Shown piece by piece: positions 2,295 through 20,122 of a DNA stretch of 64,000 bases. The DNA is from a virus (Duplodnaviria > Caudoviricetes), in the IMG/VR virus record IMGVR_UViG_3300020190_000004; one strand, 5' to 3'. Under the pieces are notes generated by a model. It saw nothing but the letters and a program-made list of their open reading frames with translations. It was not told where the DNA came from and searched no databases. How positions within the stretch are numbered: position 1 is the stretch's first letter; each line of letters starts with the position of its first letter. The position numbers were made by a program, and so were the translations under genes.

Positions 2295-2533
2295 TTCTTA
2301 TCACCGTACAATTCGTGATAAGATTTTGTATGTTTAGATGCTTTTAGCATTTTCTTACCTTTAGTATCACCAGGCAGCTCTTTGTATGCATCGGGATCGT
2401 CATCGGGCATATCTGCTTGCTTTGCCATTTGAGACTTTTTCTTATCAATGGTACCTTTGCCAATCCCTTTAAAGTAAGGAGCGTCTTTTTCTGCCTCAGT
2501 TAAGAAGGTCTCAAATGTGCTTATGTGTTTCAT
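2291..2533 (-). CDS. Leader-tagged small protein (resembles the N-terminal part of DUF5824-like proteins)
   Basis: Starts (MD)MKHISTFETFLTE; body contains PYFKGIGK..DDDPDAYKELPGD..KASKHTKSYHELYG. Confidence 0.7.
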   Translation of the reverse strand: MKHISTFETFLTEAEKDAPYFKGIGKGTIDKKKSQMAKQADMPDDDPDAYKELPGDTKGKKMLKASKHTKSYHELYGDKK

Positions 2534-2538
2534 ATCCA

Positions 2539-2889
2539 TTATTTCTTTTTAGGATTGAAACCGGCCTTTCGGGCTTCTTTTGCCAAGTCGGTATCAGCTT
2601 TACCCCATGTGCCTTCACCGCCAGTCAAGAAGCTGTTTACGCGAGCATATGCCCATTGCTCTTGGCCTGCACCAGGGCGGTGACCAGACTTCCAAGCAGC
2701 CATGCCTCGACGGAATACTGCACGGATAATTCCTATTGGACAGCCAGACTCTTCTGCCTTGTTCTTAACACCAGTCTCTAATTCTTCGCTGTCAAGTGGG
2801 CCGCGGTCAGTTGATTGCTTGTCATCGTCTTCAGCTTCAAGTAAATAGCTTTCGTATAAGAAGCTTTCAAATGTGTGTATGCGTTTCAT
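2539..2889 (-). CDS. Leader-tagged DUF5824-like protein (C-terminal part)
   Basis: Starts MKRIHTFESFLYESYLLE; body contains VFRRGMAAWKSGHRPGAGQEQWAYARVNSF. Family name is from recall. Confidence 0.7.
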   Translation of the reverse strand: MKRIHTFESFLYESYLLEAEDDDKQSTDRGPLDSEELETGVKNKAEESGCPIGIIRAVFRRGMAAWKSGHRPGAGQEQWAYARVNSFLTGGEGTWGKADTDLAKEARKAGFNPKKK

Positions 2890-2911
2890 ATATTATGTAT
2901 GTTTAATTTCT

Positions 2912-2919
2912 TATATATC
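2912..2919 (-). promoter_or_regulatory. Putative late promoter GATATATA
   Basis: Exact motif 22 nt upstream of the ATG at 2889. Confidence 0.6.
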
Positions 2920-2925
2920 TTTTTT

Positions 2926-3546
2926 TCATGGTTTTGCTATTAAGTACCCTGAAAGTTGATTGGCAAAATCAACGAAATCATTAACTAGGTTTTTGCTTAT
3001 TCTTTCGTCCGAAGTTCCGATGTTATGACAGCTAATAAAACCAATCAGATCTCCCTTAAGACCGCGAATAGGAATTACAACATTTTGAACGATTCCTTGG
3101 TTTATCATTTCACGAGCCATAACAGGATACTCATCACAGCAATGAGCATCAACTATAACCATATCTTCTTCAAAAAGAATGTTAAACAGTTTTGGAAATT
3201 CTGATACGAGCAGATTTTGGTATTCTCTTTTGATGCGAGCAATTCCAGGCGCAGTGGCTTCATATGTCATAGAGAATTTTTTCATACTTCTGCCGTTAAA
3301 GAATTTACCACCATTATGAAATTGTGATATTGCTACACGATCGAACTCATATTCTTCGCGAATCTTTTCAATGAATTCTGCTATATGGACCATTTCACCA
3401 ACGTCCGCGTGCTTGATTGCTTCTTCAGCATGTTGTTTCCTAATAGCTGCACGAGTATCTAGCCAATTCTTAACGACAACTGTTATGATAGCAATCATTA
3501 TCGAGGTAAAACCGGATATCAAAGATATTGTAACTGATTCGCTCAT
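2926..3546 (-). CDS. Membrane-anchored GAF-like protein, probable T4 T-like holin
   Basis: One N-terminal TM helix (ISLISGFTSIMIAIITVVV), then a GAF-like pattern DRVAISQFHNG...IPIRGLKGDLIGFISC. No leader tag. Confidence 0.5.
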   Translation of the reverse strand: MSESVTISLISGFTSIMIAIITVVVKNWLDTRAAIRKQHAEEAIKHADVGEMVHIAEFIEKIREEYEFDRVAISQFHNGGKFFNGRSMKKFSMTYEATAPGIARIKREYQNLLVSEFPKLFNILFEEDMVIVDAHCCDEYPVMAREMINQGIVQNVVIPIRGLKGDLIGFISCHNIGTSDERISKNLVNDFVDFANQLSGYLIAKP

Positions 3547-3686
3547 CTTCCTTGCCCCCTATAAGACTTTTTGTAGTTTTTTGAACTCTTAAGCTTAGAT
3601 GCTCTCTTTTTTGAATGAATTCCTGGTCTTTTTACTTTTTGCCTTTTTACAAAAGACTTTACTTCTGACGTTTTTGATCTTGCCAT
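3543..3686 (-). CDS. Very basic 47-aa protein ending YRGQGR (not in ORF track)
   Basis: MARSKTSEVKSFVKRQKVKRPGIHSKKRASKLKSSKNYKKSYRGQGR, 18 K/R against 1 E. Its stop overlaps the next ATG (ATGA) and it fills an otherwise empty gap. Confidence 0.7.
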   Translation of the reverse strand: MARSKTSEVKSFVKRQKVKRPGIHSKKRASKLKSSKNYKKSYRGQGR

Positions 3687-4228
3687 GTCTTAACCCATTT
3701 TTTGTAATCGTCGAAGCTCATAATTCCAATGCGTGTGTTGACGTCATCTTCGTCATCTTCTCCAAATTTATCACCAGAACCCACGTTTCCGTTAGCTGGT
3801 GGTGAAACATTACCCATGCCAGGTGTGTTAGGAGGTTGCGCAACCCCGGGAGGGACAGTAGCCGCAACTGCTTCATTCTTTTTTTTCTCGTCGTCTTCTT
3901 TCTTATCAGATATAAAGTCAATAAATGATTGAATAAGTGGATCTTGCTTGTCTCTTGTAGCTAATATATGACTAGCTCCAATGTTTGCCGAGTATTTACT
4001 ATATCTTACCAAGGGGCCGGTACTTAGGAATCCGGATATACTCCCTTCCTCTATGTGTTTAGGTAGCCCTTCGTGTTTAGTTTCTGCAAAATCCTTTAGC
4101 TGATCAAGGGTCATGCTGTCAGCTAAATCTTGTACCTCTCTGCTAGCTTTCGTGGGTTTCATATCACCTTTTTTAAGAGCGTATGCCATACCCATTAGCT
4201 TTTGCTGTGCTTGAGATACCGCAGGCAT
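3659..4228 (-). CDS. DUF3008-like N-terminal domain plus low-complexity tail
   Basis: MPAVSQAQQKLMG...ADSMTLDQLKDFAETKHEGLPKH resembles DUF3008 (recall); acidic and Pro/Gly-rich C-terminal half. Confidence 0.6.
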   Translation of the reverse strand: MPAVSQAQQKLMGMAYALKKGDMKPTKASREVQDLADSMTLDQLKDFAETKHEGLPKHIEEGSISGFLSTGPLVRYSKYSANIGASHILATRDKQDPLIQSFIDFISDKKEDDEKKKNEAVAATVPPGVAQPPNTPGMGNVSPPANGNVGSGDKFGEDDEDDVNTRIGIMSFDDYKKWVKTWQDQKRQK

Positions 4229-4230
4229 GA

Positions 4231-4578
4231 TTAAGTAGTTTTTTGTTTCATTATTGCCTCGTGAACTCTTTCTCCCATTTTAGATAAAGTGTAGTACTTG
4301 GTGTTATTCTTTTCAACAACATTAAAGTAACGAGTATTTTTGTTAACCCATTTACGACTAGTGTTTCCGCCAGTTTCTTCGTTAACACTGTTGATGAATT
4401 CCATCAACTGTGTATGAGTCACTTTTTTCTTTTCTTTAACGAAAGATAGGATTCTTTCACGAATAGGAGCATTATCTGAAACCGCAGATTCTGGATGTTT
4501 CTCGGTGTATTTTCTCTTGATAACAACACGCCCTTCATTTATCATGAAGTCAGTAAAGTTATTTACGTATTTGTTCAT
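4231..4578 (-). CDS. Leader-tagged probable winged-helix protein
   Basis: Starts MNKYVNNFTDFMINE; helical core followed by a wing-like YYTLSKMGERV. Confidence 0.55.
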   Translation of the reverse strand: MNKYVNNFTDFMINEGRVVIKRKYTEKHPESAVSDNAPIRERILSFVKEKKKVTHTQLMEFINSVNEETGGNTSRKWVNKNTRYFNVVEKNNTKYYTLSKMGERVHEAIMKQKTT

Positions 4579-4601
4579 TTCCTGTCCTTATTTTAGTTTT
4601 G

Positions 4602-4609
4602 TATATATC
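4602..4609 (-). promoter_or_regulatory. Putative late promoter GATATATA
   Basis: Exact motif 23 nt upstream of the ATG at 4578, abutting the upstream stop codon. Confidence 0.6.
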
Positions 4610-6376: not shown

Positions 6377-6393
6377 TTATGTTTGTTTTATAG

Positions 6394-6765
6394 TTATATT
6401 TTTCCTGTTAAGCGTATTCTTTTTTCGTCATCATCAACTAAATGATGTCCTACAACATCTTCAATTACTTCTGCCATTTTCTTAGTCTTATCACCAGCTG
6501 GTGGTGTCTGAATTTCCACAGAACCGTTATAGTAAGTTGGAAGTTTTTTTGCCTTTGCATCAAATCCTGCAGAGTTCAAGGCTTTTGCTATTTCCTCAGC
6601 TTCGTCAAACATAATTGTTCCTATCTCTAAGTGGTCGCGATAGTTTAACAGAGTTATAGTAGAAACTTCATGACCGTTTACTACTTCTCCGAGTTCAATA
6701 CGACTCATGTCTACAAGCTTCTTGCCTTCATTTAAGAAACTTTCAAATGTGTGTAGATGTTTCAT
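6394..6765 (-). CDS. Leader-tagged hypothetical protein
   Basis: Starts MKHLHTFESFLNE. Confidence 0.8.
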   Translation of the reverse strand: MKHLHTFESFLNEGKKLVDMSRIELGEVVNGHEVSTITLLNYRDHLEIGTIMFDEAEEIAKALNSAGFDAKAKKLPTYYNGSVEIQTPPAGDKTKKMAEVIEDVVGHHLVDDDEKRIRLTGKI

Positions 6766-6777
6766 AGCTTACTTGTT

Positions 6778-7215
6778 TTATTCAACTGCAATCTCAACGC
6801 CACCGCTTCCTGTAGAATAAGCGGTAATGCTTATTCGAGAACCGTCTGATAACATTATTCTTACATAAGAATTTTGTCCATCTTCGTCTTCAAGAATAGC
6901 TTTAATCTTCTTTCCTATATGATCCTTTAATGAAGGGTCGGTAGTTCTTGCATCTTCATTAAGCTCATCTTCGTTCAAGCTCTCTTTTACTAGAACCGAT
7001 TGCATACCAAATCTTTCTTTAGCCAATTGTATAGCCATTCTACTTTTTGGCGTATCGTCTAACTCAAAAACTGTAGGCCTTACCTGGTCATATTGGATCT
7101 TATTGCCATCAAGGTCCTTTTTGAACGATGAAACTGCTTTGGAGGCTAGACTAACTGACAGTTTCTTTCCTGAGTTTTCATTTAAGAAGCTTTCAAATGT
7201 GTGTATGTGTTTCAT
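6778..7215 (-). CDS. Leader-tagged hypothetical protein (two small domains)
   Basis: Starts MKHIHTFESFLNE; internal SLNEDELNE linker. Confidence 0.8.
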   Translation of the reverse strand: MKHIHTFESFLNENSGKKLSVSLASKAVSSFKKDLDGNKIQYDQVRPTVFELDDTPKSRMAIQLAKERFGMQSVLVKESLNEDELNEDARTTDPSLKDHIGKKIKAILEDEDGQNSYVRIMLSDGSRISITAYSTGSGGVEIAVE

Positions 7216-7229
7216 ACTAATTCTATTTT

Positions 7230-7601
7230 TTATTTTTTGCCAAACATATCGGTTTCTCTACTACTTGGTCGTTTTGTTTTGCCAGCTTGTATAATTGATT
7301 CCAATTCATCGTATAGATCTTCGGCTTTTGTTATATCTTTTTTGTCTACTCTAAAGTAACCTTTATTAGTATTCATAAAATAATGGTCATCTTTGTTAGC
7401 AACAAAGAAAGTAGACGCTGGAGAAAAAGCAAAAGCTAAATTGACTGCTCTCACCTGGCCATTAGTAATTTCTATGGTAGAAGAACCACCTTTTAAGAGT
7501 TTTGCAAGTTTATCTAGTATTGCATCACCTGTGTTTTTTGCTCCTTCTAAATAAACAATCTTTTCATTTAAGAAGCTTTCAAATGTGTGTATGTGTTTCA
7601 T
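7230..7601 (-). CDS. Leader-tagged hypothetical protein
   Basis: True start inferred at MKHIHTFESFLNE (7601), not at 7622. Confidence 0.8.
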   Translation of the reverse strand: MKHIHTFESFLNEKIVYLEGAKNTGDAILDKLAKLLKGGSSTIEITNGQVRAVNLAFAFSPASTFFVANKDDHYFMNTNKGYFRVDKKDITKAEDLYDELESIIQAGKTKRPSSRETDMFGKK

Positions 7602-7608
7602 TGTAATA

Positions 7609-7905
7609 CTATATTTTTGCAATTGAAGTTACTTTCTTGCCTTTTTTCTCCGCATCATTAGGGTCTGCGTAGTAGAGAAGGTTGGCCTGAATCAGCCTAT
7701 TGAAAATCTCGTCTTTTACAATCTCAAAGTCAATGCTATCAGAAGAGTTTTCCCATGTTTCAGCAACATACTCTGGGTCAATCCATCCATACCCTGCCTT
7801 AATGTTCTTTACCATGTTGGCAAAGTCCAGCTCAAAAGTTTTAACCGCACCTTCATTAAGAGTGGCTTCATTCAAGAAGCTTTCAAATGTGTGTATGTGT
7901 TTCAT
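7609..7905 (-). CDS. Leader-tagged hypothetical protein
   Basis: Starts MKHIHTFESFLNEATLNE (7905). Confidence 0.8.
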   Translation of the reverse strand: MKHIHTFESFLNEATLNEGAVKTFELDFANMVKNIKAGYGWIDPEYVAETWENSSDSIDFEIVKDEIFNRLIQANLLYYADPNDAEKKGKKVTSIAKI

Positions 7906-8192
7906 TTTAGATTCCATGTTCTTTTGTCATCCATATCAAGTATTTCAATGCCTAATTGCTTAACAGTATTTTCTAAATTAGATTGTTCTTCCTGATCTCC
8001 GCTTTTTATGTATTCAATAACATCTCTGAATGATTGAAAAAAATGCTTTTCTCGCATCTGTGTTTTTATCTTATCCCAATTGTAATAAATTGCATGAAGC
8101 AGACCGCTAACACCAGCGGAAGTTAGCGCTAATTCATTTATTTCTTGTTCATTCAAGAAGTTTTCGAATGTGCTTATGTGTTTCATGTCCAT
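7902..8192 (-). CDS. Leader-tagged hypothetical protein
   Basis: Starts (MD)MKHISTFENFLNEQEINE. Confidence 0.8.
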   Translation of the reverse strand: MDMKHISTFENFLNEQEINELALTSAGVSGLLHAIYYNWDKIKTQMREKHFFQSFRDVIEYIKSGDQEEQSNLENTVKQLGIEILDMDDKRTWNLK

Positions 8193-8196
8193 GTAG

Positions 8197-8206
8197 TATA
8201 TATTTA
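8197..8206 (-). promoter_or_regulatory. Late-promoter variant (TAAATATATA)
   Basis: AT-rich variant at the gene junction just upstream of 8192/8186; resembles both GATATATA and the T4 late promoter TATAAATA. Confidence 0.35.
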
Positions 8207-9091
8207 TGCCAGGTCAGACGGAAAAGGAAGCTTGGCGTCTGTCAGCTTTTGCTTAAACTCCGTCATGATATCTTCCCGCTTATCAGGGAACTTAAAGTCT
8301 CCGCCGTCAATCAGACCACGCAAACTTTCATAGGTCATGATCTCAGAAACCTTGTGACCACCGTTAAAGAGTAGTTCCACTATCTCCTGCGGAACCCGCG
8401 TAATATCTTTGTCAAACGCTCGAAGAAGGTCTGCATTTTTTTTCAGCCCGCGTGCACCTTCAAAGGTTTTGCGTACTTGTACAACTCCCTGATTCATACG
8501 TATCACATATGCCTTGTACTCAGCAGTTTCACCTTTGCCGGTTTGCTTGGTGATCTCGTAAAAGCAATTTCCAATTGCGGCCATCAGCAATATGTTTCTG
8601 TAAGCACCTTTGTACTGTGATTCGCCTGCTCGAAAGTCTGGCGAGTGGTAGATAAACTTACTCCATTCCAGGTCAATCGACATCATTAAATCTACTTGGC
8701 CAATTCCGTTTGCTGAATCCCCGGCAACAGGAACGCCAATGCTTACTTGCTGTAACCCTTTTTGCATTAAGGTGGAATATCCTAAAGACATTAACTTTTC
8801 ATCTAATGCCATCAATGAATTTTCCAAAGAGACTCCTAAGAAACCAGCAATCTTGTCAGCCGAGACCGCGATATCTATATCTCCGGAAGTAGCTTCCGGT
8901 AATTTCTTACCCGCACTTCCAATTACTGCAGCATCATCACCAATTCCTACCAATCCGATTTGAGGAAAAATGTTCTTTACAATCCAATCCACAGTAGGCT
9001 GAACTTGGTTCTGTTGAAAAGGTACAGCATTCTCAATAGAGTTGCCACTTTCAAGAATGAATTGTTCAAACAACTTGACGTACTGCCTCAC
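8204..9091 (-). CDS. Leader-tagged Pol-beta-superfamily nucleotidyltransferase
   Basis: Likely GTG start at 9091 (TAGTG overlap) gives MRQYVKLFEQFILE. Catalytic pattern IGSAG...SGDIDIAV...QVDLM. Confidence 0.65.
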   Translation of the reverse strand: MRQYVKLFEQFILESGNSIENAVPFQQNQVQPTVDWIVKNIFPQIGLVGIGDDAAVIGSAGKKLPEATSGDIDIAVSADKIAGFLGVSLENSLMALDEKLMSLGYSTLMQKGLQQVSIGVPVAGDSANGIGQVDLMMSIDLEWSKFIYHSPDFRAGESQYKGAYRNILLMAAIGNCFYEITKQTGKGETAEYKAYVIRMNQGVVQVRKTFEGARGLKKNADLLRAFDKDITRVPQEIVELLFNGGHKVSEIMTYESLRGLIDGGDFKFPDKREDIMTEFKQKLTDAKLPFPSDLA

Positions 9092-9624
9092 TAGAATCCT
9101 GCCTTTTGTGCCTCTTTGCGGTCTAACCACTTTGCGTTAACTACGTCGTACCAGATGTTTGAATCACTTGACCCAGGAAGAATAAAGTTAGTCCCGTTAG
9201 AACCTCCGCTTGTGTGCGTGTAAGAGTAGTTTAGGTTTGTCCAAATGCATGGTTCAAACTCAAAGTCTGAACCATCTTCAGCGGTAGCTTTTGAAATCTT
9301 TGGAAAGCTTCCGCCGCCAAAGAAGGAAAGATATACCTCTTTGAACCCATACTGCATGATGCCCAATGCATCACCTGTCACAGGCTTAGATACCAATTTG
9401 ATACGGTTACCCGCGTCTTCAATAGCAAAGTCAGTTGGCCAGTCCACGCCTTTATCCTTAAGGAAAGTTGCTAACGCTGGTCCTGCATTTTCCAGGATAT
9501 CAGCCTTAAGCGTAGCCTCGTCTTTGAATTTGTCATCACTAACGTACTTTACGTTTTCGTTAAGGTCAGCAGCTTCATTCACACCTTTGTTGATGTAAGT
9601 TTCAAAAGTTTTTAAGTGTTTCAT
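9091..9624 (-). CDS. Leader-tagged hypothetical protein
   Basis: Starts MKHLKTFETYINKGVNEAADLNE. Confidence 0.8.
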   Translation of the reverse strand: MKHLKTFETYINKGVNEAADLNENVKYVSDDKFKDEATLKADILENAGPALATFLKDKGVDWPTDFAIEDAGNRIKLVSKPVTGDALGIMQYGFKEVYLSFFGGGSFPKISKATAEDGSDFEFEPCIWTNLNYSYTHTSGGSNGTNFILPGSSDSNIWYDVVNAKWLDRKEAQKAGF

Positions 9625-9883
9625 TGTATTTTGTTATTTTGACTATTAAATCAGTGGTGCCGGGTATCACGCGATGGATAACGCCGGCAGGTATTTTAAT
9701 CACTGTATATATCTTTTCTGGTAGTTGGTTATCAAACTGAAATTGCCAATCATTTTCGTTAAGAGGTTCAACGATTCTGTCCTCTTCATCCCAATGCCAT
9801 TTATATTCTGACCAGTCAGTATTTACAAAAAAAGTCCGTATGACTACGGACTCATTGATTTTTTCTTCTTTATAAGGTTTCAT
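9602..9883 (-). CDS. Cupin-like small protein
   Basis: Start MKPYKEEKINE at 9883 (TAATG overlap); KWHWDEEDR...IPAGVIHRVIPG is a cupin-type His pattern. Confidence 0.55.
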   Translation of the reverse strand: MKPYKEEKINESVVIRTFFVNTDWSEYKWHWDEEDRIVEPLNENDWQFQFDNQLPEKIYTVIKIPAGVIHRVIPGTTDLIVKITKYNETLKNF

Positions 9884-10050
9884 TAAGCTTTGTCTACGAT
9901 TGACCAAATTGTACCAGTTAATGTGATAACACCACCGATGATTTCAGTCACAGTTGTTTCGTCAGTTAAGCCTTTCATTACCACGATACCACCTACGAAT
10001 GTAAGAGTATGACGGATGATACCTAGAATCTGTTCTTTTGTTAGTTTCAT
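9883..10050 (-). CDS. Two-TM small membrane protein, holin-like (55 aa, not in ORF track)
   Basis: MKLTKEQILGIIRHTLTFVGGIVVMKGLTDETTVTEIIGGVITLTGTIWSIVDKA; GATATATA motif 22 nt upstream. Confidence 0.7.
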   Translation of the reverse strand: MKLTKEQILGIIRHTLTFVGGIVVMKGLTDETTVTEIIGGVITLTGTIWSIVDKA

Positions 10051-10072
10051 TTTTTCTATTTTATTTTTTTTG

Positions 10073-10080
10073 TATATATC
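10073..10080 (-). promoter_or_regulatory. Putative late promoter GATATATA
   Basis: Exact motif 22 nt upstream of the ATG at 10050, overlapping the upstream TAG. Confidence 0.6.
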
Positions 10081-10619
10081 TACCAGGGTGCATCGGACTG
10101 AAGTCCTAACTGCTTATTAAAGAGCGTGCTGGCGTAACAAGCCCAGAACCCCGCGGTAGTAGGGTCCATCTTTTTTTGTAAATCGCACTGTTGGCGTGCC
10201 CAGAAAGATGCAGAAGCCACAGGATCGTCATTCTTGATGGAAAGACCCGTGGTGTCTCCCCATTGAATTTGCATTGCCAAGATATTTCCATCTTCATCTT
10301 CTTTCCCGCTGTTGTGATACACCGTAAACTTTTTATCTCCACCACGAAATGGTGTGTCGAGTTCTACGTCAATCATTTTGCCGTCAGGTGTTTCAAACTT
10401 TGCCTTTTTACCCACTTCCAGATTCTTGGCCATCCAAGCAGCTTTATCGGAGAGTATGATGTTATCTTCGTCCCAGTATTTCTTTGTCTCTTCAAAAAGA
10501 TCTTTATAGGCTTGACTGCCTAAACGGTAGACAGAATTGGTTATGTCCAACCCATTTTCCATGTGGTAGCGGAATCCTTCGGAGACCTGGAAGTCTTCAA
10601 ATGTCTTTACGTATTTCAT
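10080..10619 (-). CDS. Leader-tagged conserved phage protein
   Basis: Starts MKYVKTFEDFQVSEGF; C-terminal KKFTVY..WGDTTGLSIK..SFWARQQC..AGFWAC Cys-containing module. Confidence 0.75.
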   Translation of the reverse strand: MKYVKTFEDFQVSEGFRYHMENGLDITNSVYRLGSQAYKDLFEETKKYWDEDNIILSDKAAWMAKNLEVGKKAKFETPDGKMIDVELDTPFRGGDKKFTVYHNSGKEDEDGNILAMQIQWGDTTGLSIKNDDPVASASFWARQQCDLQKKMDPTTAGFWACYASTLFNKQLGLQSDAPW

Positions 10620-11320
10620 ATCTTAATGCTAAAATGTTCTTTAACTGCTTCTTCAATTCCTAATGCATAGGACCAGATATCTTCGGAAATCTTTTTTTCG
10701 CCAGCTTTATTGAAAGTAATCAGCGGCCAGTAAATAGTATTTTTTGTGATAGCTGCACTCGGGAAAGTCATTTCATAGTACTGTCCGCCCTTTTCACCAA
10801 ACGCATGAACTACTAAGCACTCTCCATAGTACTTACCTATTTCATCTTTTTGCATACAGATACCACCAATGGCTTTTCCTCCAGTTTCTTCTGACCATCT
10901 TGCTGCATTACCAAAGCACTGATTCCTTGTACCACCTGCTTCAATCCATTCTGCTTCAACACTCTTAACCAGTTCATCTAAAATTGCTACAATTACTGCT
11001 TGAATACTGATGAAATTTGAAGATGATATCTTGCCTTCTGCGTCAACTGTGAAATCTTTGAACCATCCTGGTCTTTTAGCCGGATCTTGAGCATTCCAGT
11101 GATTTGCAGATTCTTCAGCGTTCGTCAGAGCCGTTTTTCCCGCAGCTGTGTTTTTCCACTTGCCTGACTTTAGCATTGAGAGCGTTTTTGATCTTATTGA
11201 TGAATCACCCTTTGATGCATAAAATACATTGCCACCTAAGCCTGTGCTATAGACAGTTTCATTCAGATACTGAAATCCTTCAGAGACTTGAAAGTCTTCA
11301 AATGTTTTGACGTATTTCAT
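10572..11320 (-). repeat. Pair of 48-nt repeats encoding the identical peptide MKYVKTFEDFQVSEGF (10572-10619, 11273-11320)
   Basis: 42 of 48 nt identical; all 6 differences are synonymous. Confidence 0.9.
10616..11320 (-). CDS. Leader-tagged protein with a possible papain/transglutaminase-like C-terminal domain
   Basis: Starts MKYVKTFEDFQVSEGFQYLNE; NQCFGNA...VVHAF...QYYEMT gives Cys-His-Glu spacing. Confidence 0.45.
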   Translation of the reverse strand: MKYVKTFEDFQVSEGFQYLNETVYSTGLGGNVFYASKGDSSIRSKTLSMLKSGKWKNTAAGKTALTNAEESANHWNAQDPAKRPGWFKDFTVDAEGKISSSNFISIQAVIVAILDELVKSVEAEWIEAGGTRNQCFGNAARWSEETGGKAIGGICMQKDEIGKYYGECLVVHAFGEKGGQYYEMTFPSAAITKNTIYWPLITFNKAGEKKISEDIWSYALGIEEAVKEHFSIKI

Positions 11321-11742
11321 TTGAACATACTTTTATTGTAGATAACTAATCCTAAGTAAGGATTGTTATTTTTACCTTCTGTTGGATCATAAACGCCATC
11401 AGCCTTCTTTTCTTTTGCCATTTGCATAATTTTTTGCCCACCATATTTTTGCGCGTCGGGGACTAATAAAATTTTAGCATCATTAGAAAGTTCATATTCA
11501 TCCGAACCAGCATAATAATCATCAGATTCATAATGGGCCGAACTGTCTGCAGTAACTGAAAAGTAGCTTCCTTTCCCTAAGACCGAACCCATAGTATCCA
11601 TATCTTCATCTCCGCTTTCATACTCAAAAAAAGCCTTTTCTAACTTACCAGAATCCGTAGTTAGGTATTTCTTTTTGAATTCAGCACCTGTAATTAGTTC
11701 TGATTCATTCATAAAACTTTCGTATGTCTTTACGTATTTCAT
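11317..11742 (-). CDS. Leader-tagged ADP-ribosyltransferase-like (ART-PolyVal-like) protein
   Basis: Starts MKYVKTYESFMNE; LGKGSYFS..SAHY..YELSNDAKIL..KKADGVY..LVIYN pattern. Confidence 0.4.
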   Translation of the reverse strand: MKYVKTYESFMNESELITGAEFKKKYLTTDSGKLEKAFFEYESGDEDMDTMGSVLGKGSYFSVTADSSAHYESDDYYAGSDEYELSNDAKILLVPDAQKYGGQKIMQMAKEKKADGVYDPTEGKNNNPYLGLVIYNKSMFK

Positions 11743-11748
11743 TCTAAT

Positions 11749-12117
11749 TTATTTATTCATCTCTTGAGTCTTCTTCTTTAACTCTTCGAGAAAGTTTGTC
11801 CATATCACATTAGCAGCTTTCAGGTTTTTCTTCTTTTCCGGGTCCTTGGTCCTTTCAATAGCAACCTTTCCACGCTGCTGCATCACCAAGGCAGCTTGCA
11901 CCTTGTGCGCATGCTCTCGGTCAATGCCTTTAATAATCTCAATGCCTTTTTCCGCCGTCTCAGCGTCTTTGAAGCCCAAGCCATGAATTGTGCCTTCTGG
12001 ATCCTCGTCAGTGTACAAATCCGAGTGCTTGCTTGAACCGGCTGGTTGACCTGGTTTTCTAGGGGTTCTTTTATCAGCTTCCGCAATCCAAGATTCGTAT
12101 GTCTTTACGTATTTCAT
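11749..12117 (-). CDS. Leader-tagged conserved viral protein
   Basis: Starts MKYVKTYESWIAE; body HSDLYTDEDPEGTIHGLGFKD..HAHKVQAALVMQQR. Confidence 0.75.
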   Translation of the reverse strand: MKYVKTYESWIAEADKRTPRKPGQPAGSSKHSDLYTDEDPEGTIHGLGFKDAETAEKGIEIIKGIDREHAHKVQAALVMQQRGKVAIERTKDPEKKKNLKAANVIWTNFLEELKKKTQEMNK

Positions 12118-12154
12118 TTTTGGTTAGCGCGCTTTGTATTTTTTGTCATTCACT

Positions 12155-12658
12155 TTAAGAAAGCAATTTAATAGCTTTCGGTGGTATCTTGCCCAGATAT
12201 ACAATTTCATCCGATTGCTTGTAGTAATCATCTCTTGATATCTTTTTATCAGCTTTTACATCAATCATTAGTTTAGGTGGTATCTCAATTCCTATTGAAA
12301 ATAAATTGGGATCTAGTTGTGTACCGTCTATCTGCAACAATACTCCATCATACTCGTATCTACGCGGTAAGTAATGAAAACTCACAATATCTGATACATT
12401 GTCCAAAGATGACAGCCAAACTCCTTCGAACAATTCACCTTTCAATCCTCCTCCGTGAGTACCAGCTTTTGGGCGAGAGGGTATCAATCCTTCCTTTTCT
12501 ACCTTATCATAGTAAGCTTGACGCATCACTAAATGGTATAAAGGCTGTTTTGTGTTAAAAGGTTCATCAGATTGGATAGATTGCAAATAATCTAACCCAA
12601 CTCGCATATCTTTATTGCCTTCATCCAAGAAGCTCTCGTATGTCTTTACCCACTTCAT
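12155..12658 (-). CDS. Leader-tagged ART-fold (Tpt1/KptA-like NAD-binding) protein
   Basis: Starts MKWVKTYESFLDE; LYHL..EGLIP..GVWLS..VLLQID..DEIVYLGKIPPKAI follows the H-S-E type ART strand order. Confidence 0.55.
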   Translation of the reverse strand: MKWVKTYESFLDEGNKDMRVGLDYLQSIQSDEPFNTKQPLYHLVMRQAYYDKVEKEGLIPSRPKAGTHGGGLKGELFEGVWLSSLDNVSDIVSFHYLPRRYEYDGVLLQIDGTQLDPNLFSIGIEIPPKLMIDVKADKKISRDDYYKQSDEIVYLGKIPPKAIKLLS

Positions 12659-12951
12659 CTCTTGCTGATCTTGTTACTTGAAATGGCTCTTTGCCTGCTA
12701 CACTTAAACCTGGCTATCTCTTCGTCTCTCTTGTGTAGGTGTTTCTGACTTACACCGCTGTTAACACGCTCCCTCCAAAGATTAAAACTTTTTCTCTTTA
12801 ATTCAGCACGCATCAACTTAATAGTTTCAGATTCGCTGAGACCAAACTGAGCCTTGATTGCCTCAAAAGGTGTTCTGTCCTCCCACGCCATTTCTATGAT
12901 GCGATCTACATTCTCACTTGATATGCTCTTGTATGTCTTTACGCATTTCAT
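12655..12951 (-). CDS. DUF2805/TIGR03643-family protein with a degenerate leader
   Basis: VDRIIEMAWEDRTPFEAIKAQFGLSESETIKLMRAELKRKSFNLWRERV is the family signature (recall); starts MKCVKTYKSISSE. Confidence 0.8.
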   Translation of the reverse strand: MKCVKTYKSISSENVDRIIEMAWEDRTPFEAIKAQFGLSESETIKLMRAELKRKSFNLWRERVNSGVSQKHLHKRDEEIARFKCSRQRAISSNKISKR

Positions 12952-13253
12952 TAGTCTTGCTTATCTTGTTGATATTGCCAAAGTTCTTCATAAGAAGTCA
13001 TCCATCCGTTTTCTTTGGCAATTCTTTCAGTATTACTGTTTGCTTGCAATAGAAAAGAAATTACTGCATCAAAAGCTTTTTTGAAGTCAGCTTCTTTAAC
13101 GCGATCCCAATAACCAACACCTATGTAGTCTTTAATCACATAGAATGGATATGCCGGGTCTTTTACGCTTTTGGTTCTGCGAGTTTGCAAATGAACAGAC
13201 TTTGGATCCGCATTTTCATTCAAAAAACTCTCGTATGTCTTTACGTAATTCAT
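12951..13253 (-). CDS. Leader-tagged hypothetical protein
   Basis: Starts MNYVKTYESFLNE. Confidence 0.8.
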   Translation of the reverse strand: MNYVKTYESFLNENADPKSVHLQTRRTKSVKDPAYPFYVIKDYIGVGYWDRVKEADFKKAFDAVISFLLQANSNTERIAKENGWMTSYEELWQYQQDKQD

Positions 13254-13258
13254 ATTTC

Positions 13259-14029
13259 TTAAAATTCATTCCAAAATTTAGCTATACGGTCATACACACG
13301 TTTTTGGTCTTCTTTAGATATCATTTTTAACCATGTCCATTCTTCTGGATAGATTTCATTCAATATAAAGTAAATGAAATCGTTGAGGTTATCAAAATGT
13401 TTTGTAGGGTCGCCGTAATCATTGTAAACTCGATTTAGCGCGGTATTTAGGTGTGTATTGATTTCAGCATTTAGTTGGTGATACTTTTCTTGCGGCAATT
13501 TTCCGTTTTCGTCAGCAAACTTTTTAACAAAATCGTCCAGTTGTCGATTCATAGCCTCGCGGTATTTATCGCCATACTCAGTTGCATCAAATAAGTGATG
13601 TACTTCATGATTGATGGCTCTTACAAATTCTCCGCTCCAGATTCTTTCTGGTGCTTTCATCATAGTCTCAATCAAATCTTGCAATTCCTTTACATAGTCT
13701 TTGTCAAAATCTCCGTCGTTGTAAGCAAGCTCAACAAGATTGTATCGGTACTTTGGTTTTCTAAAGTAATGAGCAAGTCCTAACGTTATGTCCAGTGTAT
13801 CATAATTTATTGATGCCGCGTCATGCCTATCTGGATCTATGGTAACATTAAATTCAACGCCGTCTATCGAAAATATGTAGTCGTCCTCAAATTTAACCAG
13901 CTGTGCTGCAATAGCAGCTGCTTTGCTTTTTAGCGTTGATAAAACTTTGTCAACCATTTTGTTCGCTTTATCAAACCTCTGAACAAAACTTTCATTCAAG
14001 AAGCTCTCGTATGTCTTTACCCACTTCAT
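13259..14029 (-). CDS. Leader-tagged putative zincin metallopeptidase-like protein
   Basis: Starts MKWVKTYESFLNE; contains INHEVHHLFD (HExxH). Confidence 0.5.
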   Translation of the reverse strand: MKWVKTYESFLNESFVQRFDKANKMVDKVLSTLKSKAAAIAAQLVKFEDDYIFSIDGVEFNVTIDPDRHDAASINYDTLDITLGLAHYFRKPKYRYNLVELAYNDGDFDKDYVKELQDLIETMMKAPERIWSGEFVRAINHEVHHLFDATEYGDKYREAMNRQLDDFVKKFADENGKLPQEKYHQLNAEINTHLNTALNRVYNDYGDPTKHFDNLNDFIYFILNEIYPEEWTWLKMISKEDQKRVYDRIAKFWNEF

Positions 14030-14703
14030 AATTGTATAAATCTTCCAGGAGAGTCACTGCTTAACTTTCCGTTCTTTATGACAAACCGGTCTTTTTGTAT
14101 CTCAGCAGTCCAGTCGCCAGGAAGCCTGTGTCCTTGTTTCTTTATATATTCCAGGTAGAGTCTTCCACGCTTTGACTGCGCAACAGGAACTCCTTCTTCA
14201 ATGTCTTCCAATTTAGGTGCTATGTGTATCTCTTCCAGTTTTACCCATTTCCACTCGGATATATCTTTGACCGTGCTGGCAATAATATCTGTCACTGTGG
14301 AAATTACACGAAACTGTTCACCGTAATTAGTAATGGCTTCTCGATCCGTACCAATTTTACTATTTACAGTATCAAAGGCTATACCTATCACCAAGTTGTA
14401 ATCTTGTGGTGTTCGACCGGGACGTTTACCCCCAAAACTAATGTGTATATAGCGTGTAAACTCACCAACGATCTTTACTACGTATGTAGCCTTATCACTC
14501 TTAAACTCATAAGTAATCTCCGGTAGTTTATCCCATTTGCCTGGAACCATTTCACCCTTGTCTAGGTTGGATATCGTAGTCATCCAACCACGATCTACAG
14601 ACACAGAACCAGTGCGTTTCCAAGGAAACGGTGATGTGCCTTCGCCAATCTCGTTAAGCTGCTGTTCCAGTAAAAAGTATTCAAATGTGTTTAAGTGCTT
14701 CAT
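14026..14703 (-). CDS. Leader-tagged hypothetical protein
   Basis: True start inferred at MKHLNTFEYFLLEQQLNE (14703). Confidence 0.75.
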   Translation of the reverse strand: MKHLNTFEYFLLEQQLNEIGEGTSPFPWKRTGSVSVDRGWMTTISNLDKGEMVPGKWDKLPEITYEFKSDKATYVVKIVGEFTRYIHISFGGKRPGRTPQDYNLVIGIAFDTVNSKIGTDREAITNYGEQFRVISTVTDIIASTVKDISEWKWVKLEEIHIAPKLEDIEEGVPVAQSKRGRLYLEYIKKQGHRLPGDWTAEIQKDRFVIKNGKLSSDSPGRFIQL

Positions 14704-14704
14704 C

Positions 14705-15106
14705 TTAATCCATAGAATCCGAAAGTCTCCACAAATCATGTAAGAACAAATCCGCGTCTTTCATGTTTTTAATCTCTGGAAACTCTTGTTTTGCTTTCTT
14801 AATAAATTCTTCCACGGTTTTGGATTCTTGACGAAGAATGTCCAATTCGCTCATGTAACCTTCAAATAAGTAACTTTCAAAAGACTCTGTAATCGCACCA
14901 AATTCGTTGAACATATTCAAGTTAATCATTACAGGACTACCGCTTTTAGGTTTTGCGGTAATCGTAGTCTTATTGTTTGCGGTAACAGTCATTCGTGTGC
15001 CGCGGTATACAATCTCTGAATCTACGGGAATCTTCTCAAAGTCTTCCAGTGTCATCTTTTGTCCATAGTTCTTTATGAATCCTTCAAATGTTTGTAAGTG
15101 TTTCAT
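14705..15106 (-). CDS. Leader-tagged protein with a second, internal leader-like motif
   Basis: Starts MKHLQTFEGFIK; internal ITESFESYLFEG. Confidence 0.75.
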   Translation of the reverse strand: MKHLQTFEGFIKNYGQKMTLEDFEKIPVDSEIVYRGTRMTVTANNKTTITAKPKSGSPVMINLNMFNEFGAITESFESYLFEGYMSELDILRQESKTVEEFIKKAKQEFPEIKNMKDADLFLHDLWRLSDSMD

Positions 15107-15702
15107 TACTTGATGTATTTTGTTAGTTCACTCCAGTATTTCCACAATTCTTTGGGCATCATTTGCTGAAATGCTTTTTCGTCTCCAGCTTTAATAGCCT
15201 CTCGAACTTTAGTACCACTTGCACCGTCAGCATCACGAGCATCAACCATTTTAACAGCAAAAGCAGGATCAACGGCGACGTCGGTTTTAGGACTTGTGAC
15301 GTATGCAACTTGACGAGTATAGTCAGTAAAACGATCACTTCCACAGCCAAGTCCTTGCGGTTCGTATCCTTGTTCTCGTAAGAATTTAACCATTAGTGGA
15401 ATAACCGTCTTGTCTCCTTTTGGGTATATGAAGTAGTCCGCAATAAACGCATTTGCTTTTACTACATCTGCTCCCATCTTTTGCAAAATATCATCAGGAA
15501 ACGGCGATTCTTCGCGAGCAGAAAGTATCTGTAACGGAATTACAGGCAGTCCAAATTCTTTTGAAGCACGCTCAAGTGCCGCTAAATGCCCGTTATGAAA
15601 AGGCTGAAACCTTCCGGGAAAAAAGATTACTTTCTTCCCGTCTGTGATTTCAGATATGATCGCTTCATACAGAAAACTCTCAAATGTTTTTACGTGGTTC
15701 AT
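15106..15702 (-). CDS. Leader-tagged cytidylyltransferase-like (HIGH superfamily) nucleotidyltransferase
   Basis: Starts MNHVKTFESFLYE; FFPGRFQPFHNGH, GCGSDR, ASGTKVR. Confidence 0.85.
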   Translation of the reverse strand: MNHVKTFESFLYEAIISEITDGKKVIFFPGRFQPFHNGHLAALERASKEFGLPVIPLQILSAREESPFPDDILQKMGADVVKANAFIADYFIYPKGDKTVIPLMVKFLREQGYEPQGLGCGSDRFTDYTRQVAYVTSPKTDVAVDPAFAVKMVDARDADGASGTKVREAIKAGDEKAFQQMMPKELWKYWSELTKYIK

Positions 15703-15710: not shown

Positions 15711-16229
15711 TTATTGTTCATTCGTTGTTATTTCTCCTTTAGCTTCTAAAAACACACGTCTTACATTGGCGGGTTGTGCAATTTTCCATGCAGTTCTTCG
15801 CGCCTGATAAAGTCGGCTTTTTGCTATTCTTGAAACACTTACAGAATTGTTTTGGTTTCCACCTAATACATGGTAATACTTATCATCTTCACCGACGTAT
15901 ATTCCTACGTGGCCTCCGCCGTTTCTCTTAAAAGTAAGAATATCTCCTAACATCGGAGTTTCTACGAGATTTCCGTACTTAGCCCAGTTTAGAGCCCATA
16001 GTGGTCTTTCAACCACTTGAACATTCGCAACATAGGCGCAATGAGCAATAAAAAGACCGCACCAAGGAATTTCATCTTCGGTATAAACTTTTTGAATACC
16101 AAGTTCTTTTGCCCACCCCAGTATCGTAGGGTTGTGATTCTTTCCGACTATTTCTTTAACACCAAGATTCTTAACAGCTTCTACAAGTATCTTTGGAGAT
16201 TTCTCATTTTGTAACCATTCGTAAGCCAT
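15711..16229 (-). CDS. TIGR02594-like NlpC/P60/CHAP-type cell-wall peptidase
   Basis: DEIPWCGLF, GGGHVGIY, LGGNQNNSV (Cys/His dyad). No leader tag. Confidence 0.8.
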   Translation of the reverse strand: MAYEWLQNEKSPKILVEAVKNLGVKEIVGKNHNPTILGWAKELGIQKVYTEDEIPWCGLFIAHCAYVANVQVVERPLWALNWAKYGNLVETPMLGDILTFKRNGGGHVGIYVGEDDKYYHVLGGNQNNSVSVSRIAKSRLYQARRTAWKIAQPANVRRVFLEAKGEITTNEQ

Positions 16230-16246
16230 AATCTTTTTTATTTAAT

Positions 16247-16858
16247 TTATGTAGTTATATCAGTTGATTCAATTAGTGTGTAGGAAAACGCGTTGCCGTG
16301 TATCTTAGCGGCCTTGCGACAGATTGCCATGAACGCGTCAAAGTCTTTTACTCTCTTAAATACTTGACACCCTTCACTCCAGTTTTCAACCCAAGTTGAA
16401 TCTTGCCCAGCTTTGTGAATGTTGATTCCAAACATTCCTGTGTCAGTTACGCTTTCGTTAAAAGTTAAGTTTTTGTCAGCATCGCGGTAGACGGTTACGT
16501 TTCCGTTTCGCTGACAGAGCGCGCTGTATTTTCCCTGGTGTAAGTCTATCTTCCACACTCCACGGTACTGTCCTGGCACGAGTCGAGCCACGCCCTTCCT
16601 GTTGTGAAACTGCTGAACGCCTTTTTTACCTGGGTCCGTCGTCGCGTTCCAGCAGTAAAACTGCTCAACGCCTTTTTCGTCCTTGTATGAAATTGTTAAG
16701 CAATCATCAAAGACGTTAGTCACTTTGTCTGCGATTGAAGGAGCGTTGTTACGAACTCCTACGATATTGACATCGTAAGTTTTGTTTGCGGTGTCTTCAA
16801 ACCACTTGTAACCTTTAGCTACCACAGCAGTTTTTATTTGTTCTCTTGTGTAGCACAT
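16247..16858 (-). CDS. Putative peptidoglycan hydrolase (YkuD/L,D-transpeptidase-like His...Cys motif)
   Basis: FGINIHKAG..VENWSEGCQVF. No leader tag. Confidence 0.5.
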   Translation of the reverse strand: MCYTREQIKTAVVAKGYKWFEDTANKTYDVNIVGVRNNAPSIADKVTNVFDDCLTISYKDEKGVEQFYCWNATTDPGKKGVQQFHNRKGVARLVPGQYRGVWKIDLHQGKYSALCQRNGNVTVYRDADKNLTFNESVTDTGMFGINIHKAGQDSTWVENWSEGCQVFKRVKDFDAFMAICRKAAKIHGNAFSYTLIESTDITT

Positions 16859-16869
16859 ATTCTTTGTTT

Positions 16870-18177: not shown

Positions 18178-18178
18178 T

Positions 18179-18622: not shown

Positions 18623-18659
18623 AGTATTATAGTTCTTTAACTTCATTATGCTAAGATTT

Positions 18660-18881
18660 TTACTTTGAATCCAGTAGTGGTTTCACTGTGTTAACGAATG
18701 TTCTCAATGCAGACTGTGCAAGACGGTCATTGTAAATGAGTTTACCCAACTCAGTGTTTTTCATACCTGCCCACTCAGCAATTCCTGAAACAATAGAGTC
18801 TTCAATACCTTCTGGTGTATGGTCCAACTTACTGCCTTCGTTAGCGTTGGAAAAACTTTCAAATGAATGTATCGGTTTCAT
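18660..18881 (-). CDS. Leader-tagged hypothetical protein
   Basis: Starts MKPIHSFESFSNANE. Confidence 0.75.
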   Translation of the reverse strand: MKPIHSFESFSNANEGSKLDHTPEGIEDSIVSGIAEWAGMKNTELGKLIYNDRLAQSALRTFVNTVKPLLDSK

Positions 18882-18888
18882 ATTACTG

Positions 18889-19173
18889 TTATTTTTCTAC
18901 CATTGGTGTGCCATCGGGTTTTTTCCCAGTCATTAAGGCGTAAGCAATGATGTCGTAAGTTTCAAAACCCGGTCTTGGAGCTACTCCACCGTTATAGTCT
19001 TTTTCCCACTGCGCAAGAGATGTTTTATTCTCTGGATCAAATTTACCTTCTTCGTAATCTTTGATAGCATTCATAGCAAACATTGTATCCCAAGACTTGG
19101 GCTTTTGCATTTCATTTATAGGTCTGTCAACTTTTTGATTAGAAAAGCTTTCGAATGTGTGTAAGTGTTTCAT
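18889..19173 (-). CDS. Leader-tagged hypothetical protein
   Basis: Starts MKHLHTFESFSNQKVDRPINE. Confidence 0.75.
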   Translation of the reverse strand: MKHLHTFESFSNQKVDRPINEMQKPKSWDTMFAMNAIKDYEEGKFDPENKTSLAQWEKDYNGGVAPRPGFETYDIIAYALMTGKKPDGTPMVEK

Positions 19174-19176
19174 TTG

Positions 19177-19389
19177 TTAAAATGTATTTTCCATTATGAT
19201 AGTCTGAACAGCATCTTTAATTGCATTAATGTTGGCACCAGGTTTTAACATTCCTGAAGATTCCAACTTGTCAACAATTACCATTGCAAGTATCTTTGCG
19301 CCTGATGGTTTTTTATCGCCAGCAACTTGCACCATTGCTTCTTCAACTTTCTCGTTAGAGAAGTCTTCAAATGTTTTGATGCTTTTCAT
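19177..19389 (-). CDS. Leader-tagged hypothetical protein
   Basis: Starts MKSIKTFEDFSNEKVEE. Confidence 0.75.
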   Translation of the reverse strand: MKSIKTFEDFSNEKVEEAMVQVAGDKKPSGAKILAMVIVDKLESSGMLKPGANINAIKDAVQTIIMENTF

Positions 19390-19390
19390 A

Positions 19391-19723
19391 TTACTTAGTA
19401 AGATCTTTCATCTTGTCAGCAGCAGATCCGTCTAGATCAGCTACATCTTTAGAAGGCTCTTCCTTCTCTTTTTCTTCAGCTTTCTTTTCTTCTGCTTCTA
19501 CTTCTTTTTTAACAGAATCTTTCACGCCTTTTCCCTTCTCCCACTCCTTGGTGATTTCATTAAAGAATTCTTTCTTCTTTTCATCATCAAGTTCAGCAGG
19601 TGACTCAACACCAAACTTAGAAAGTTTTGCTTTAAAGTAATCTTGATAAGATTTTTGAAGCTCTGATGCTTCATTCATTTGAGCTTGACGTACTGCGTCT
19701 ACCCATTCGTTGAACTTTTTCAT
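19391..19723 (-). CDS. Charged small protein with a short leader variant (possible prohead core component)
   Basis: Starts MKKFNEW..QMNE; YQDYFKAKLSKFGVESPAELDDEKKKEFFN followed by an E/K-rich tail. Confidence 0.6.
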   Translation of the reverse strand: MKKFNEWVDAVRQAQMNEASELQKSYQDYFKAKLSKFGVESPAELDDEKKKEFFNEITKEWEKGKGVKDSVKKEVEAEEKKAEEKEKEEPSKDVADLDGSAADKMKDLTK

Positions 19724-19738
19724 TTTTTCTTATTTATT

Positions 19739-20122
19739 TTAAGTCATTCCATAGTGGTTCATCTGACCTCCGTAAAAATCATCGGTCATCTTGGTAATAT
19801 CTTTAACTATTTTGCTCTTGTCTTCACCAACTTCTTTAGCAAGTAGCTCAATAATATCACCGTCAATTCGCAATTTCTTATCAAGACAGTACACATATGT
19901 AGATATTGCCTTGTTAATGTTTGCGCGTTTTTCTCCGTCTTCTGAATCAACCGACTTGTAATACTTGTCAAGAAGTTGTCTTCTTAAAGTCTCAAGAGTT
20001 TCATCAGCAAAGTTTATAGTCGTCTTAATGATATGCTTGTTATCTGAACGAATGACTGTTCCAGCGTTAGTCAATCCTTTCTTTCCCTCAACAAGAAATT
20101 CAGAAAAAGTCAATATCCTCAT
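19739..20122 (-). CDS. Leader-tagged hypothetical protein (first gene of the array)
   Basis: Starts MRILTFSEFLVE. Confidence 0.75.
   Translation of the reverse strand: MRILTFSEFLVEGKKGLTNAGTVIRSDNKHIIKTTINFADETLETLRRQLLDKYYKSVDSEDGEKRANINKAISTYVYCLDKKLRIDGDIIELLAKEVGEDKSKIVKDITKMTDDFYGGQMNHYGMT

Follow-up and report, generated by a model that had tools for sequence, protein, structure and literature searches.

Local Clustering of N-Terminal Tag DNA and Probable Tag-to-Tag Shuffling of Cargo Genes in a Lake Phage

In the analyzed stretch of the Caudoviricetes record IMGVR_UViG_3300020190_000004 (64,000 nucleotides (nt), herein referred to as the window, part of a 235,949-bp metagenomic lake-phage contig), approximately 25 tightly packed and otherwise unrelated genes have a single sequence in common: the 39 nt encoding a 13-residue N-terminal peptide, herein referred to as the tag. 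Tags of neighboring genes resemble each other in DNA as well as in peptide, the genes behind the tags vary widely among related phages, and most of the rearrangements compared between close relatives have their junction inside the tag. Judging from these comparisons, homologous recombination between tag copies is probably a main driver of cargo-gene shuffling.

Tag Genes of the Analyzed Phage

Between 2.3 and 20.1 kb of the window, 23 genes, all on the minus strand, begin in register with MKxxxT(F/Y)ExF(L/I)xE. Out-of-register forms of the tag were found on four more genes (4578, 9091, 18177, and 20122), and further tag genes are located elsewhere in the same phage genome, beyond the approximately 25 in these 18 kb. 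Spacers between the genes are 0-40 nt long and mutually unrelated. The gene bodies downstream of the tags are also unrelated, as revealed by an all-against-all BLASTP. Most of these bodies are orphans; those that could be assigned are a cytidylyltransferase-like protein (15702) and proteins with DUF5824 (2889), DUF2805 (12951), and DUF5891 (15106).

The core of the tag, KT(F/Y)ExF(L/I)xE, aligns with KTYQEFIAE of phage T4, including the L/I-x-E, and (L/I/M)-x-E closes 18 of the 23 in-register tags. In T4, the capsid targeting sequence MKTYQEFIAE is removed by the prohead protease after L/I-x-E (PMC8442874, PMC9026906). The tag peptide probably works in the same way, directing the proteins into the capsid and being removed after L/I-x-E. 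It differs from the T4 sequence in having 3-4 extra N-terminal residues and in being found on far more proteins, including enzymes. A search for the prohead protease family PF03420 in three fragmentary relatives yielded no match, and the control also matched nowhere. Tag-like N-termini (MGRIHTFDRFLNE and MTLKTFSQFLVE) were found in the relative L043 on a beta-lactamase-fold protein (341 amino acids (aa), L043:2900-3925) and an S41 peptidase (769 aa, L043:4619-6928); thus, large enzymes are also tagged.

Similarity of Tag DNA between Neighboring Genes

A first-pass annotation, made from the letters of the window, had described leader subtypes that are positionally clustered and nearly identical in DNA. 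Its coordinates, counts, and identities were all reproduced, on the minus strand. The identical tags of g7215 and g7601 match from the ATG to 2 nt past codon 13, and the DNA upstream of them is unrelated. The first 48 nt of g10619 and g11320 have six differences, all of them synonymous, and encode the same 16 residues (MKYVKTFEDFQVSEGF). There are six copies of the xVKTY(E/K)S form from 11742 to 14029; the FE(S/D)FSN form was found at 18881, 19173, and 19389, and the MDMKHISTFE form at 2539 and 8192. The claim that paired copies differ mostly by synonymous changes and precede unrelated bodies was thus borne out. The MDMKHISTFE form contains an additional in-frame ATG-GAY. It was found on two genes separated by 5.6 kb and is absent from the g2533 orthologues in four relatives; therefore, tag exchange is not confined to adjacent genes.

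The clustering was assessed by permutation of gene positions. For pairs of genes at most three genes apart, the tags have a nucleotide identity of 0.713 vs. 0.664 in permuted arrangements (p = 1e-4) and a peptide identity of 0.626 vs. 0.552 (p = 1e-4). At positions with the same residue, the same codon is used more often in near pairs (0.731) than in far pairs (0.633; p = 3e-4). The neighbors are therefore alike in nucleotides, peptide, and synonymous codons beyond the level expected from permutation. The effect is local, reaching up to four genes, and was replicated for adjacent genes in five pooled relatives (p = 0.0012). Over all tag copies, codon sharing is 0.65, and the background codon usage of the phage predicts 0.49; thus, either the copies have a common origin as DNA or their nucleotide sequence is constrained. 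Genome-wide concerted evolution of the tags was rejected, since far pairs in the same genome (nucleotide identity 0.670) do not resemble each other more closely than pairs taken from two genomes (0.679), as compared with 0.719 for neighbors.

Selection on the leader peptide, as proposed in the annotation, was supported. Across tag pairs, the ratio of nonsynonymous to synonymous differences (pN/pS) ranges from 0.2 to 0.45 overall. The near-fixed residues are 2, 6, 7, 8, and 10, and positions 3, 4, 5, 9, 11, and 12 are nearly free. The positions that define the subtypes evolve almost neutrally (pN 0.3-0.44). Being defined by such fast positions, the subtypes mark recent common ancestry.

Two codons of the tag behave differently from the others. 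Of the 22 copies with Thr at codon 6, 21 use ACA (background 0.37; for example, 7198-7206), and codon 4 is nearly fixed in its third base (NTA; always TA or similar). For this pair of codons, 4 and 6, pS is 0.09 and 0.21, as against 0.4-1.4 at the other tag codons. This fixation is a nucleotide-level constraint that is not explained by selection on the peptide, and it could come from a constraint on translation start.

Variability of Gene Content among Relatives

Relatives were gathered from IMG/VR and JGI metagenomes by a tag DNA pattern and by alignment of the 588-aa gene, and subsequently by look-ups of homologue identity. A scan of viral contigs with the single 588-aa protein gave no match, and an alignment query with the same protein succeeded. 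No near match to the window was found in the phage collection, in which the best protein relatives belong to megaphages with at most 44% identity, too distant for synteny.

The relatives have a syntenic backbone including genes for DNA polymerase, dUTPase, and Hsp20, g4578, the 588-aa gene, g9091, g10619, g15702, g18177, g20122, and the helicase gene. Between these backbone genes, the tag genes differ widely in number, order, and identity, with the flanks being kept. For example, the slot bounded by the g14703 and g11320 families contains no genes in L026, one gene in L029 and in a 143-kb contig, at least three genes in L024, and six genes in the window. In the 143-kb relative, the site flanked by the 294-aa and 563-aa genes lacks the block of five HIHTFESFLNE genes, which is rearranged in L011. 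Next to Hsp20, approximately 10 tag genes were found in G001 vs. two in the window. The gains, losses, and swaps of cargo expected from the annotation were therefore all found once the relatives were aligned, and neither gene content nor gene order is fixed. An assembly artefact as the source of the repeats was rejected, since at least five assemblies obtained independently from other samples share the gene order seen in the window.

One gene of the slot described above is unusually similar between distant relatives. The product of g13253 and the L026 orthologue share 79% identity (12951-13253 vs. L026:7069-7371), and the flanking g11320 and g14703 families have identities of 53% and 45%, respectively. 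This excess reflects either transfer of a cassette between lineages or an unusually conserved protein.

Junctions of Rearrangements between Close Relatives

In total, eight rearrangements were compared between close pairs (90-99.8% nucleotide identity). A junction was assigned to the tag only if the level of identity shifts inside the tag of a close pair; such junctions, lying within the 39 nt, were found in five of the eight events. The first was found between L024 and L029, which are 99.8% identical over 2197 nt (four differences); this stretch begins within the tag of a 176-aa gene. Four differences are located in the first 17 nt of this tag, and the sequences upstream of it are unrelated: one contig has a g14703-like gene there, and the other has a 120-aa tag gene. 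Both arrangements are present in independent contigs. That L024 is an assembly chimera was rejected, because the adjacency of the 120-aa and 176-aa genes was also found in four other contigs.

Three more events distinguish G002 from G003, which are 95-97% identical. In one of them, a 95-aa body is swapped for an unrelated 150-aa body. The 60 nt upstream and nt 1-8 of the tag are identical, five differences are found in nt 9-18, and identity returns at nt 7-12 of the following gene's tag; this replacement looks like a double crossover from tag to tag. Beside a 138-aa indel, the two sequences are 83% identical up to approximately nt 18 of the tag of a 119-aa gene and 100% identical thereafter. 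G002 also has a 127-aa gene that G003 lacks, located between two tags with identical first 24 nt, a pattern of deletion or insertion between direct repeats. The fifth event was found between L046 and L024, which are 92% identical until 24 nt into the tag and continue with different cargoes of 158 and 235 aa. The junction of a 150-aa indel was ambiguous. Junctions that are in register inside a coding repeat are those expected from homology-guided recombination.

Exchange of Tags between Neighboring Genes

Grafting of a tag from a neighboring gene, another proposal of the annotation, was found in at least one case, from 10619 to 11320. The body of g11320 has 35 homologues, all starting with LNETVY and preceded by diverse 10-23-residue tags such as MKYVKTYESFNP, MKKYIKLFEEFE, and MKYVKTFESFLNENFLF. 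In this family, FEDFQVSEGF was found only in the closest clade (75-82% identity) and in the window. In the family of g10619, encoded directly downstream, the same sequence is a constant mark in every relative. In the distant L027, the two families are already adjacent, yet their tags are different. Given this distribution, a tract comprising the tag and approximately five codons was copied from g10619 to g11320. Between the two tags, 7.5 of 9.3 synonymous sites and 1.5 of 41.7 nonsynonymous sites are changed, which indicates that the copy is old and that both peptides are under selection. Conversion between 11320 and 10619 after the lineages split may be reflected in one shared F-to-Y change (L042); the identity matrix gave no clear signal.

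The slot directly upstream of the g10619 family provides another example. In four of five lineages, this slot is occupied by a gene with a YVKTFE-type tag, and the bodies behind these tags differ (234, 127, 153, and 159 aa). Elsewhere, this type was found in only 3 of 88 genes (Fisher p = 6e-5). A fifth unrelated body with such a tag, of 158 aa, was found in this slot in L046. Thus, in this position the type of the tag follows the position and not the cargo.

Two genes of the window show signs of tags as add-ons. In g12951, a DUF2805 domain starts at residue 16, behind a tag of which the first 27 nt match the g12658 tag at 24 of 27 positions, and the next 12 nt do not match. For the g14029 body, the only distant homologue (34%; P0055) has no tag and is encoded in an unrelated, tag-free contig.

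Fission and Fusion of Tag Genes

The body of g7215 is modular: in its homologues, a conserved 65-residue module is joined to various others by KES(F)LNE, a linker resembling the 3' half of the tag. In the homologue P0037, a tag is followed by the g7215 modules, SLDE, and the g7601 body; in P0052, it is followed by module B, SLNE, and the g7601 body. The DNA homology to g7601 starts at nt 30 of the g7601 tag. The order in the window is reversed relative to P0037, with the tagged g7601 body preceding the tagged g7215 body and the two tags identical at 39 of 39 positions. Similarly, in G001 and L013, g2533 is fused through a decayed internal tag to g2889, opposite to the split order in the window. 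Further fusions with internal tags were found in L011 and L040. Split genes in reversed order with identical tags would be the outcome if a fused gene were duplicated in tandem and a tag then recombined with an internal linker.

The fusion in L040 (L040:400-1380) joins the nucleotidyltransferase orthologue to a 129-residue N-terminal domain in front of it, with an intact internal tag (RKYVKTFESFIYE). In the bodies of tag genes, LNE is approximately five times enriched over the other proteins of the window (2.49 vs. 0.47 per 1000 aa). Most of these occurrences are either a second L-x-E, 3-8 residues past the tag, or a linker between modules; examples were found in 7905 (ATLNEG), 14703 (QQLNEIGEG), and 7215 (KESLNEDELNED). 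Such sites suggest double cleavage or polyproteins.

Proposed Mechanism and Alternative Explanations

The gp32-type protein encoded at 24176..25114 marks a T4-type replication and recombination system, and for systems of this type, homology shorter than 50 bp is sufficient (PMC2839356, citing Singer 1982). This system would use the tag as a dispersed direct repeat. Crossovers and short conversion tracts, presumably mostly between nearby copies, would delete or insert units consisting of a body plus one tag, replace the cargo between two consecutive tags, or copy the tag of one gene onto its neighbor. In combination with the tags, the tag-like ES(F)LNE linkers in multi-module proteins would also allow genes to be split and fused. 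Owing to fast drift at positions 3, 4, 5, 9, 11, and 12, copies that were recently exchanged or co-inherited would share a subtype, giving rise to the positional clusters. For the tag to be a built-in exchange site, as the annotation had it, its DNA would have to be selected for that role. It is rather unlikely that the tag DNA is kept alike beyond the needs of the peptide as a recombinase-free exchange site, a kind of 'integron without integrase', with new cargo, including host-derived genes, being tagged and inserted in one step and polyproteins being split and fused at the ESFLNE linker.

Several observations weigh against tag-to-tag recombination as a main driver. All of the relatives are metagenome contigs, and some of the arrangements are known from a single source. 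BLAST runs through the conserved tags, and an alignment end at the 3' end of a tag does not by itself place a crossover there. Three of the eight events have their junction in a spacer: a swap of nucleotidyltransferase alleles that begins at the upstream stop codon, an indel of two genes between A-rich spacer repeats with a downstream gene that has no tag, and a replacement between 164-aa and 474-aa genes in which one partner has no canonical tag. No gene-content variants were found among the near-identical copies of this phage, which indicates that turnover is not fast. A Mantel test of tag identity against all distances in the window was not significant (r = 0.02-0.05, p = 0.56-0.66); hence, the predicted correlation between leader similarity and genomic proximity holds locally and not globally. 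The nucleotide identity of tags between orthologues (0.755) exceeds that between neighbors (0.719), so that vertical descent also shapes the subtypes. The tags thus follow vertical descent plus a local effect, without genome-wide homogenization.

Part of this evidence would be accounted for if tag-flavored blocks were inherited or imported as a whole and rearranged by ordinary flank recombination or by illegitimate recombination selected at gene boundaries, the tag not being a preferred site. All three subtype clusters of the window are indeed lineage-specific blocks, missing from the nearest gene-mapped relative. A TYE-rich cluster was found at the same place in the distant L026, where g13253 keeps its tag together with its body. 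The spacer junctions and the retention of tags by orthologues point in the same direction, and for the xVKTYES and FESFSN clusters, inheritance or import as blocks may apply instead of serial grafting. However, one does not expect in-register junctions within a coding tag unless homology is at work, and identity switches inside tags were observed for L024/L029, for both ends of the G002/G003 replacement, and for the 119-aa gene. The g10619-type tag on the g11320 body and the five unrelated bodies with the neighbor's tag type in one slot also argue against it. As an overall explanation, inheritance of blocks is therefore doubtful. The annotation's proposal that cargo enters by recombination or duplication at the leader DNA is accordingly supported in part, by the junctions inside tags and by at least one tag copied from a neighbor; it does not extend to the spacer junctions, and the xVKTYES and FESFSN clusters are equally explained by inheritance or import of blocks.

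The subtypes could also be functional, representing loading classes, copy numbers, or cleavage kinetics kept in operons, with DNA identity arising from constraints on codons or translation start. The promoter-like boxes heading the blocks, the codons fixed beyond residue needs (codons 6 and 4, see above), and the purifying selection on QVSEGF in two genes are in line with this. It is nevertheless very improbable, as orthologous bodies differ in subtype between phages (g2533, g14703, g15702, and the g11320 family) and the subtype-defining positions are nearly neutral. Moreover, the 39/39 identity is left unexplained, since copies with the same residues elsewhere differ at most synonymous sites.

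Whole-gene tandem duplication with rapid divergence of the bodies and conservation of the tag alone would explain why neighbors share tags, and the reversed order of split and fused genes implies some tandem duplication; it was rejected as scarcely credible, because the bodies of tag-sharing neighbors have no similarity even at 0-1 synonymous tag differences and are distinct families with homologues of their own elsewhere.

Comparison with Known Systems

The T-even internal-protein (IP) loci were reportedly described by Repoila et al. in 1994 (PMID 8076614) and are treated in later papers. In these loci, unrelated genes share only a leader, the gene content is hypervariable, and conserved neighboring sequences were proposed to mediate the shuffling (PMC2839356, PMC3012670, PMC9026906, PMC12373910). 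The array of the analyzed phage is similar in that small unrelated genes have only an N-terminal, head-directing leader in common, and in that gene number, order, and identity are hypervariable between related phages. It differs in size: T-even phages have two small IP loci with a few genes each, and this phage has approximately 25 such genes within 18 kb, besides others at further sites of its genome. Furthermore, the recombination elements proposed for the IP loci are intergenic promoter/stem-loop sequences (PMC2839356), whereas here the junctions lie inside the coding tag and the spacers are unrelated.

Repeated cassettes also drive shuffling in T4-like phages (PMC2839356). In PeSL (promoter-early stem-loop) cassettes, dispersed repeats of approximately 40-100 bp flank ORFans in the hyperplastic regions of these phages (PMC2839356, PMC4122927). 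In both cases, repeats mark the boundaries of the segments that are inserted, deleted, or replaced between close relatives (here in the five events described above), and the recombination of the phage itself is invoked. PeSL cassettes consist of a non-coding promoter and terminator, whereas the repeat found here is coding and under selection for its peptide. An intergenic repeat of promoter and stem-loop was not found at the tag genes: the upstream DNA is unconserved, identity starts at the ATG, and no stem-loop was seen. Nor does the array resemble an integron, with its site-specific integrase and attC-type sites: the proteins of the array and its flanks include no integrase family, and there is no repeat besides the tag.

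The T-even IP loci and PeSL cassettes are thus the closest precedents, and the shuffling is phage gene shuffling of a known kind. New here are the use of the coding tag itself as the repeat, arrays of dozens of genes, and tag-like linkers inside polyprotein-like genes.

In CdiA proteins (VENN motif) and Rhs proteins, a conserved coding motif marks the joint at which unrelated modules are swapped by homologous recombination. A long N-terminal region is conserved there, and the toxin tip and immunity gene are variable. In the analyzed phage, the conserved part is the 13-residue N-terminal tag, and whole proteins vary.

If the tag serves both as a capsid address and as homology for swapping, the set of injected proteins could be renewed quickly without dedicated recombinases. 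Such injected proteins are likely to be counter-defense factors and enzymes. The same dual role would explain the origin of the very large cargo sets in jumbo phages and would extend the picture of T-even internal proteins to a distant lineage infecting Bacteroidota. It also provides a rule for finding injected proteins in metagenomes, namely any open reading frame behind a tag, and suggests a simple design of exchangeable-cargo cassettes for T4-type vectors.

Other Features of the Window

The coordinates of the tag genes and other features are given in Table 1. Genes for a family-B DNA polymerase and dUTPase are located at the low end of the window.

Table 1. Tag genes, tag copies, and other features of the window.
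Feature	Coordinates	Strand	Remarks
g2889 (116 aa, DUF5824, MKRIHTFESFLYE) then g2533 (80-82 aa, MDMKHISTFETFLTE)	2291..2889	-	Two tag genes
g4578, conserved backbone gene, out-of-register tag MNKYVNNFTDFMINE	4231..4578	-	Orthologues in L001, L005, L006, L008, L009, L003, L004
HIHTFESFLNE block: g8186, g7905, g7601, g7215, g6765, behind GATATATAC-like box	6394..8192	-	
g7215 tag DNA	7177..7215	-	39/39 match to 7563-7601
g7601 tag DNA	7563..7601	-	L008 and L011 orthologues with different tag variants
g9091 (295 aa), tag VRQYVKLFEQFILE, GTG start overlapping g9624 stop	8204..9091	-	
g10619 48-nt tag MKYVKTFEDFQVSEGF	10572..10619	-	Family hallmark in all relatives
g11320 48-nt tag, g10619 type	11273..11320	-	
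xVKTYES block: g14029, g13253, g12951, g12658, g12117, g11742	11317..14029	-	Six tag genes
g12658 tag DNA	12620..12658	-	38/39 match to 13991-14029
g12951, DUF2805 domain (residues 16-87) behind half tag	12655..12951	-	
g14029 tag DNA	13991..14029	-	38/39 match to 12620-12658
g14703, backbone tag gene, tag MKHLNTFEYFLLE	14026..14703	-	G001 orthologue located elsewhere, with MKYVKTYENFLNE
g15702, cytidylyltransferase-like enzyme, tagged	15106..15702	-	Tag kept in relatives, internal in L040
FE(S/D)FSN block: g19389, g19173, g18881	18660..19389	-	Sampled relatives without orthologues
g20122, first tag gene after helicase, short form MRILTFSEFLVE	19739..20122	-	
GATATATAC box	20145..20153	-	31 nt upstream of g20122
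Similar boxes	10072-10080, 8196-8204, 4601-4609, 2911-2919	-	
SNF2-type helicase	20171-21730		Best relatives are megaphages
gp32-type single-strand DNA-binding protein	24176..25114	-	PF08804, E = 4e-13

The promoter-like sequence (A/G)ATATATA(A/C/T) occurs in the window 11 times on the minus strand vs. once on the plus strand. Boxes of this type precede the first gene of every block of tag genes, and likewise the 55-aa holin gene, by 18-31 nt; they mark blocks and not individual genes. The boxes are probably late promoters heading each block, in which case the blocks would be operons.

Some genes inside the array have no tag. These include lysis-type genes, encoding a holin family protein (9883-10050), a CHAP/NlpC peptidase (15711-16229), and a conserved 203-aa protein (16247-16858). 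Finally, the GTG starts of two tag genes overlap the upstream stop codon (window 9089-9093 and L029:434-437; TAGTG and CTGTGA), which suggests translational coupling.

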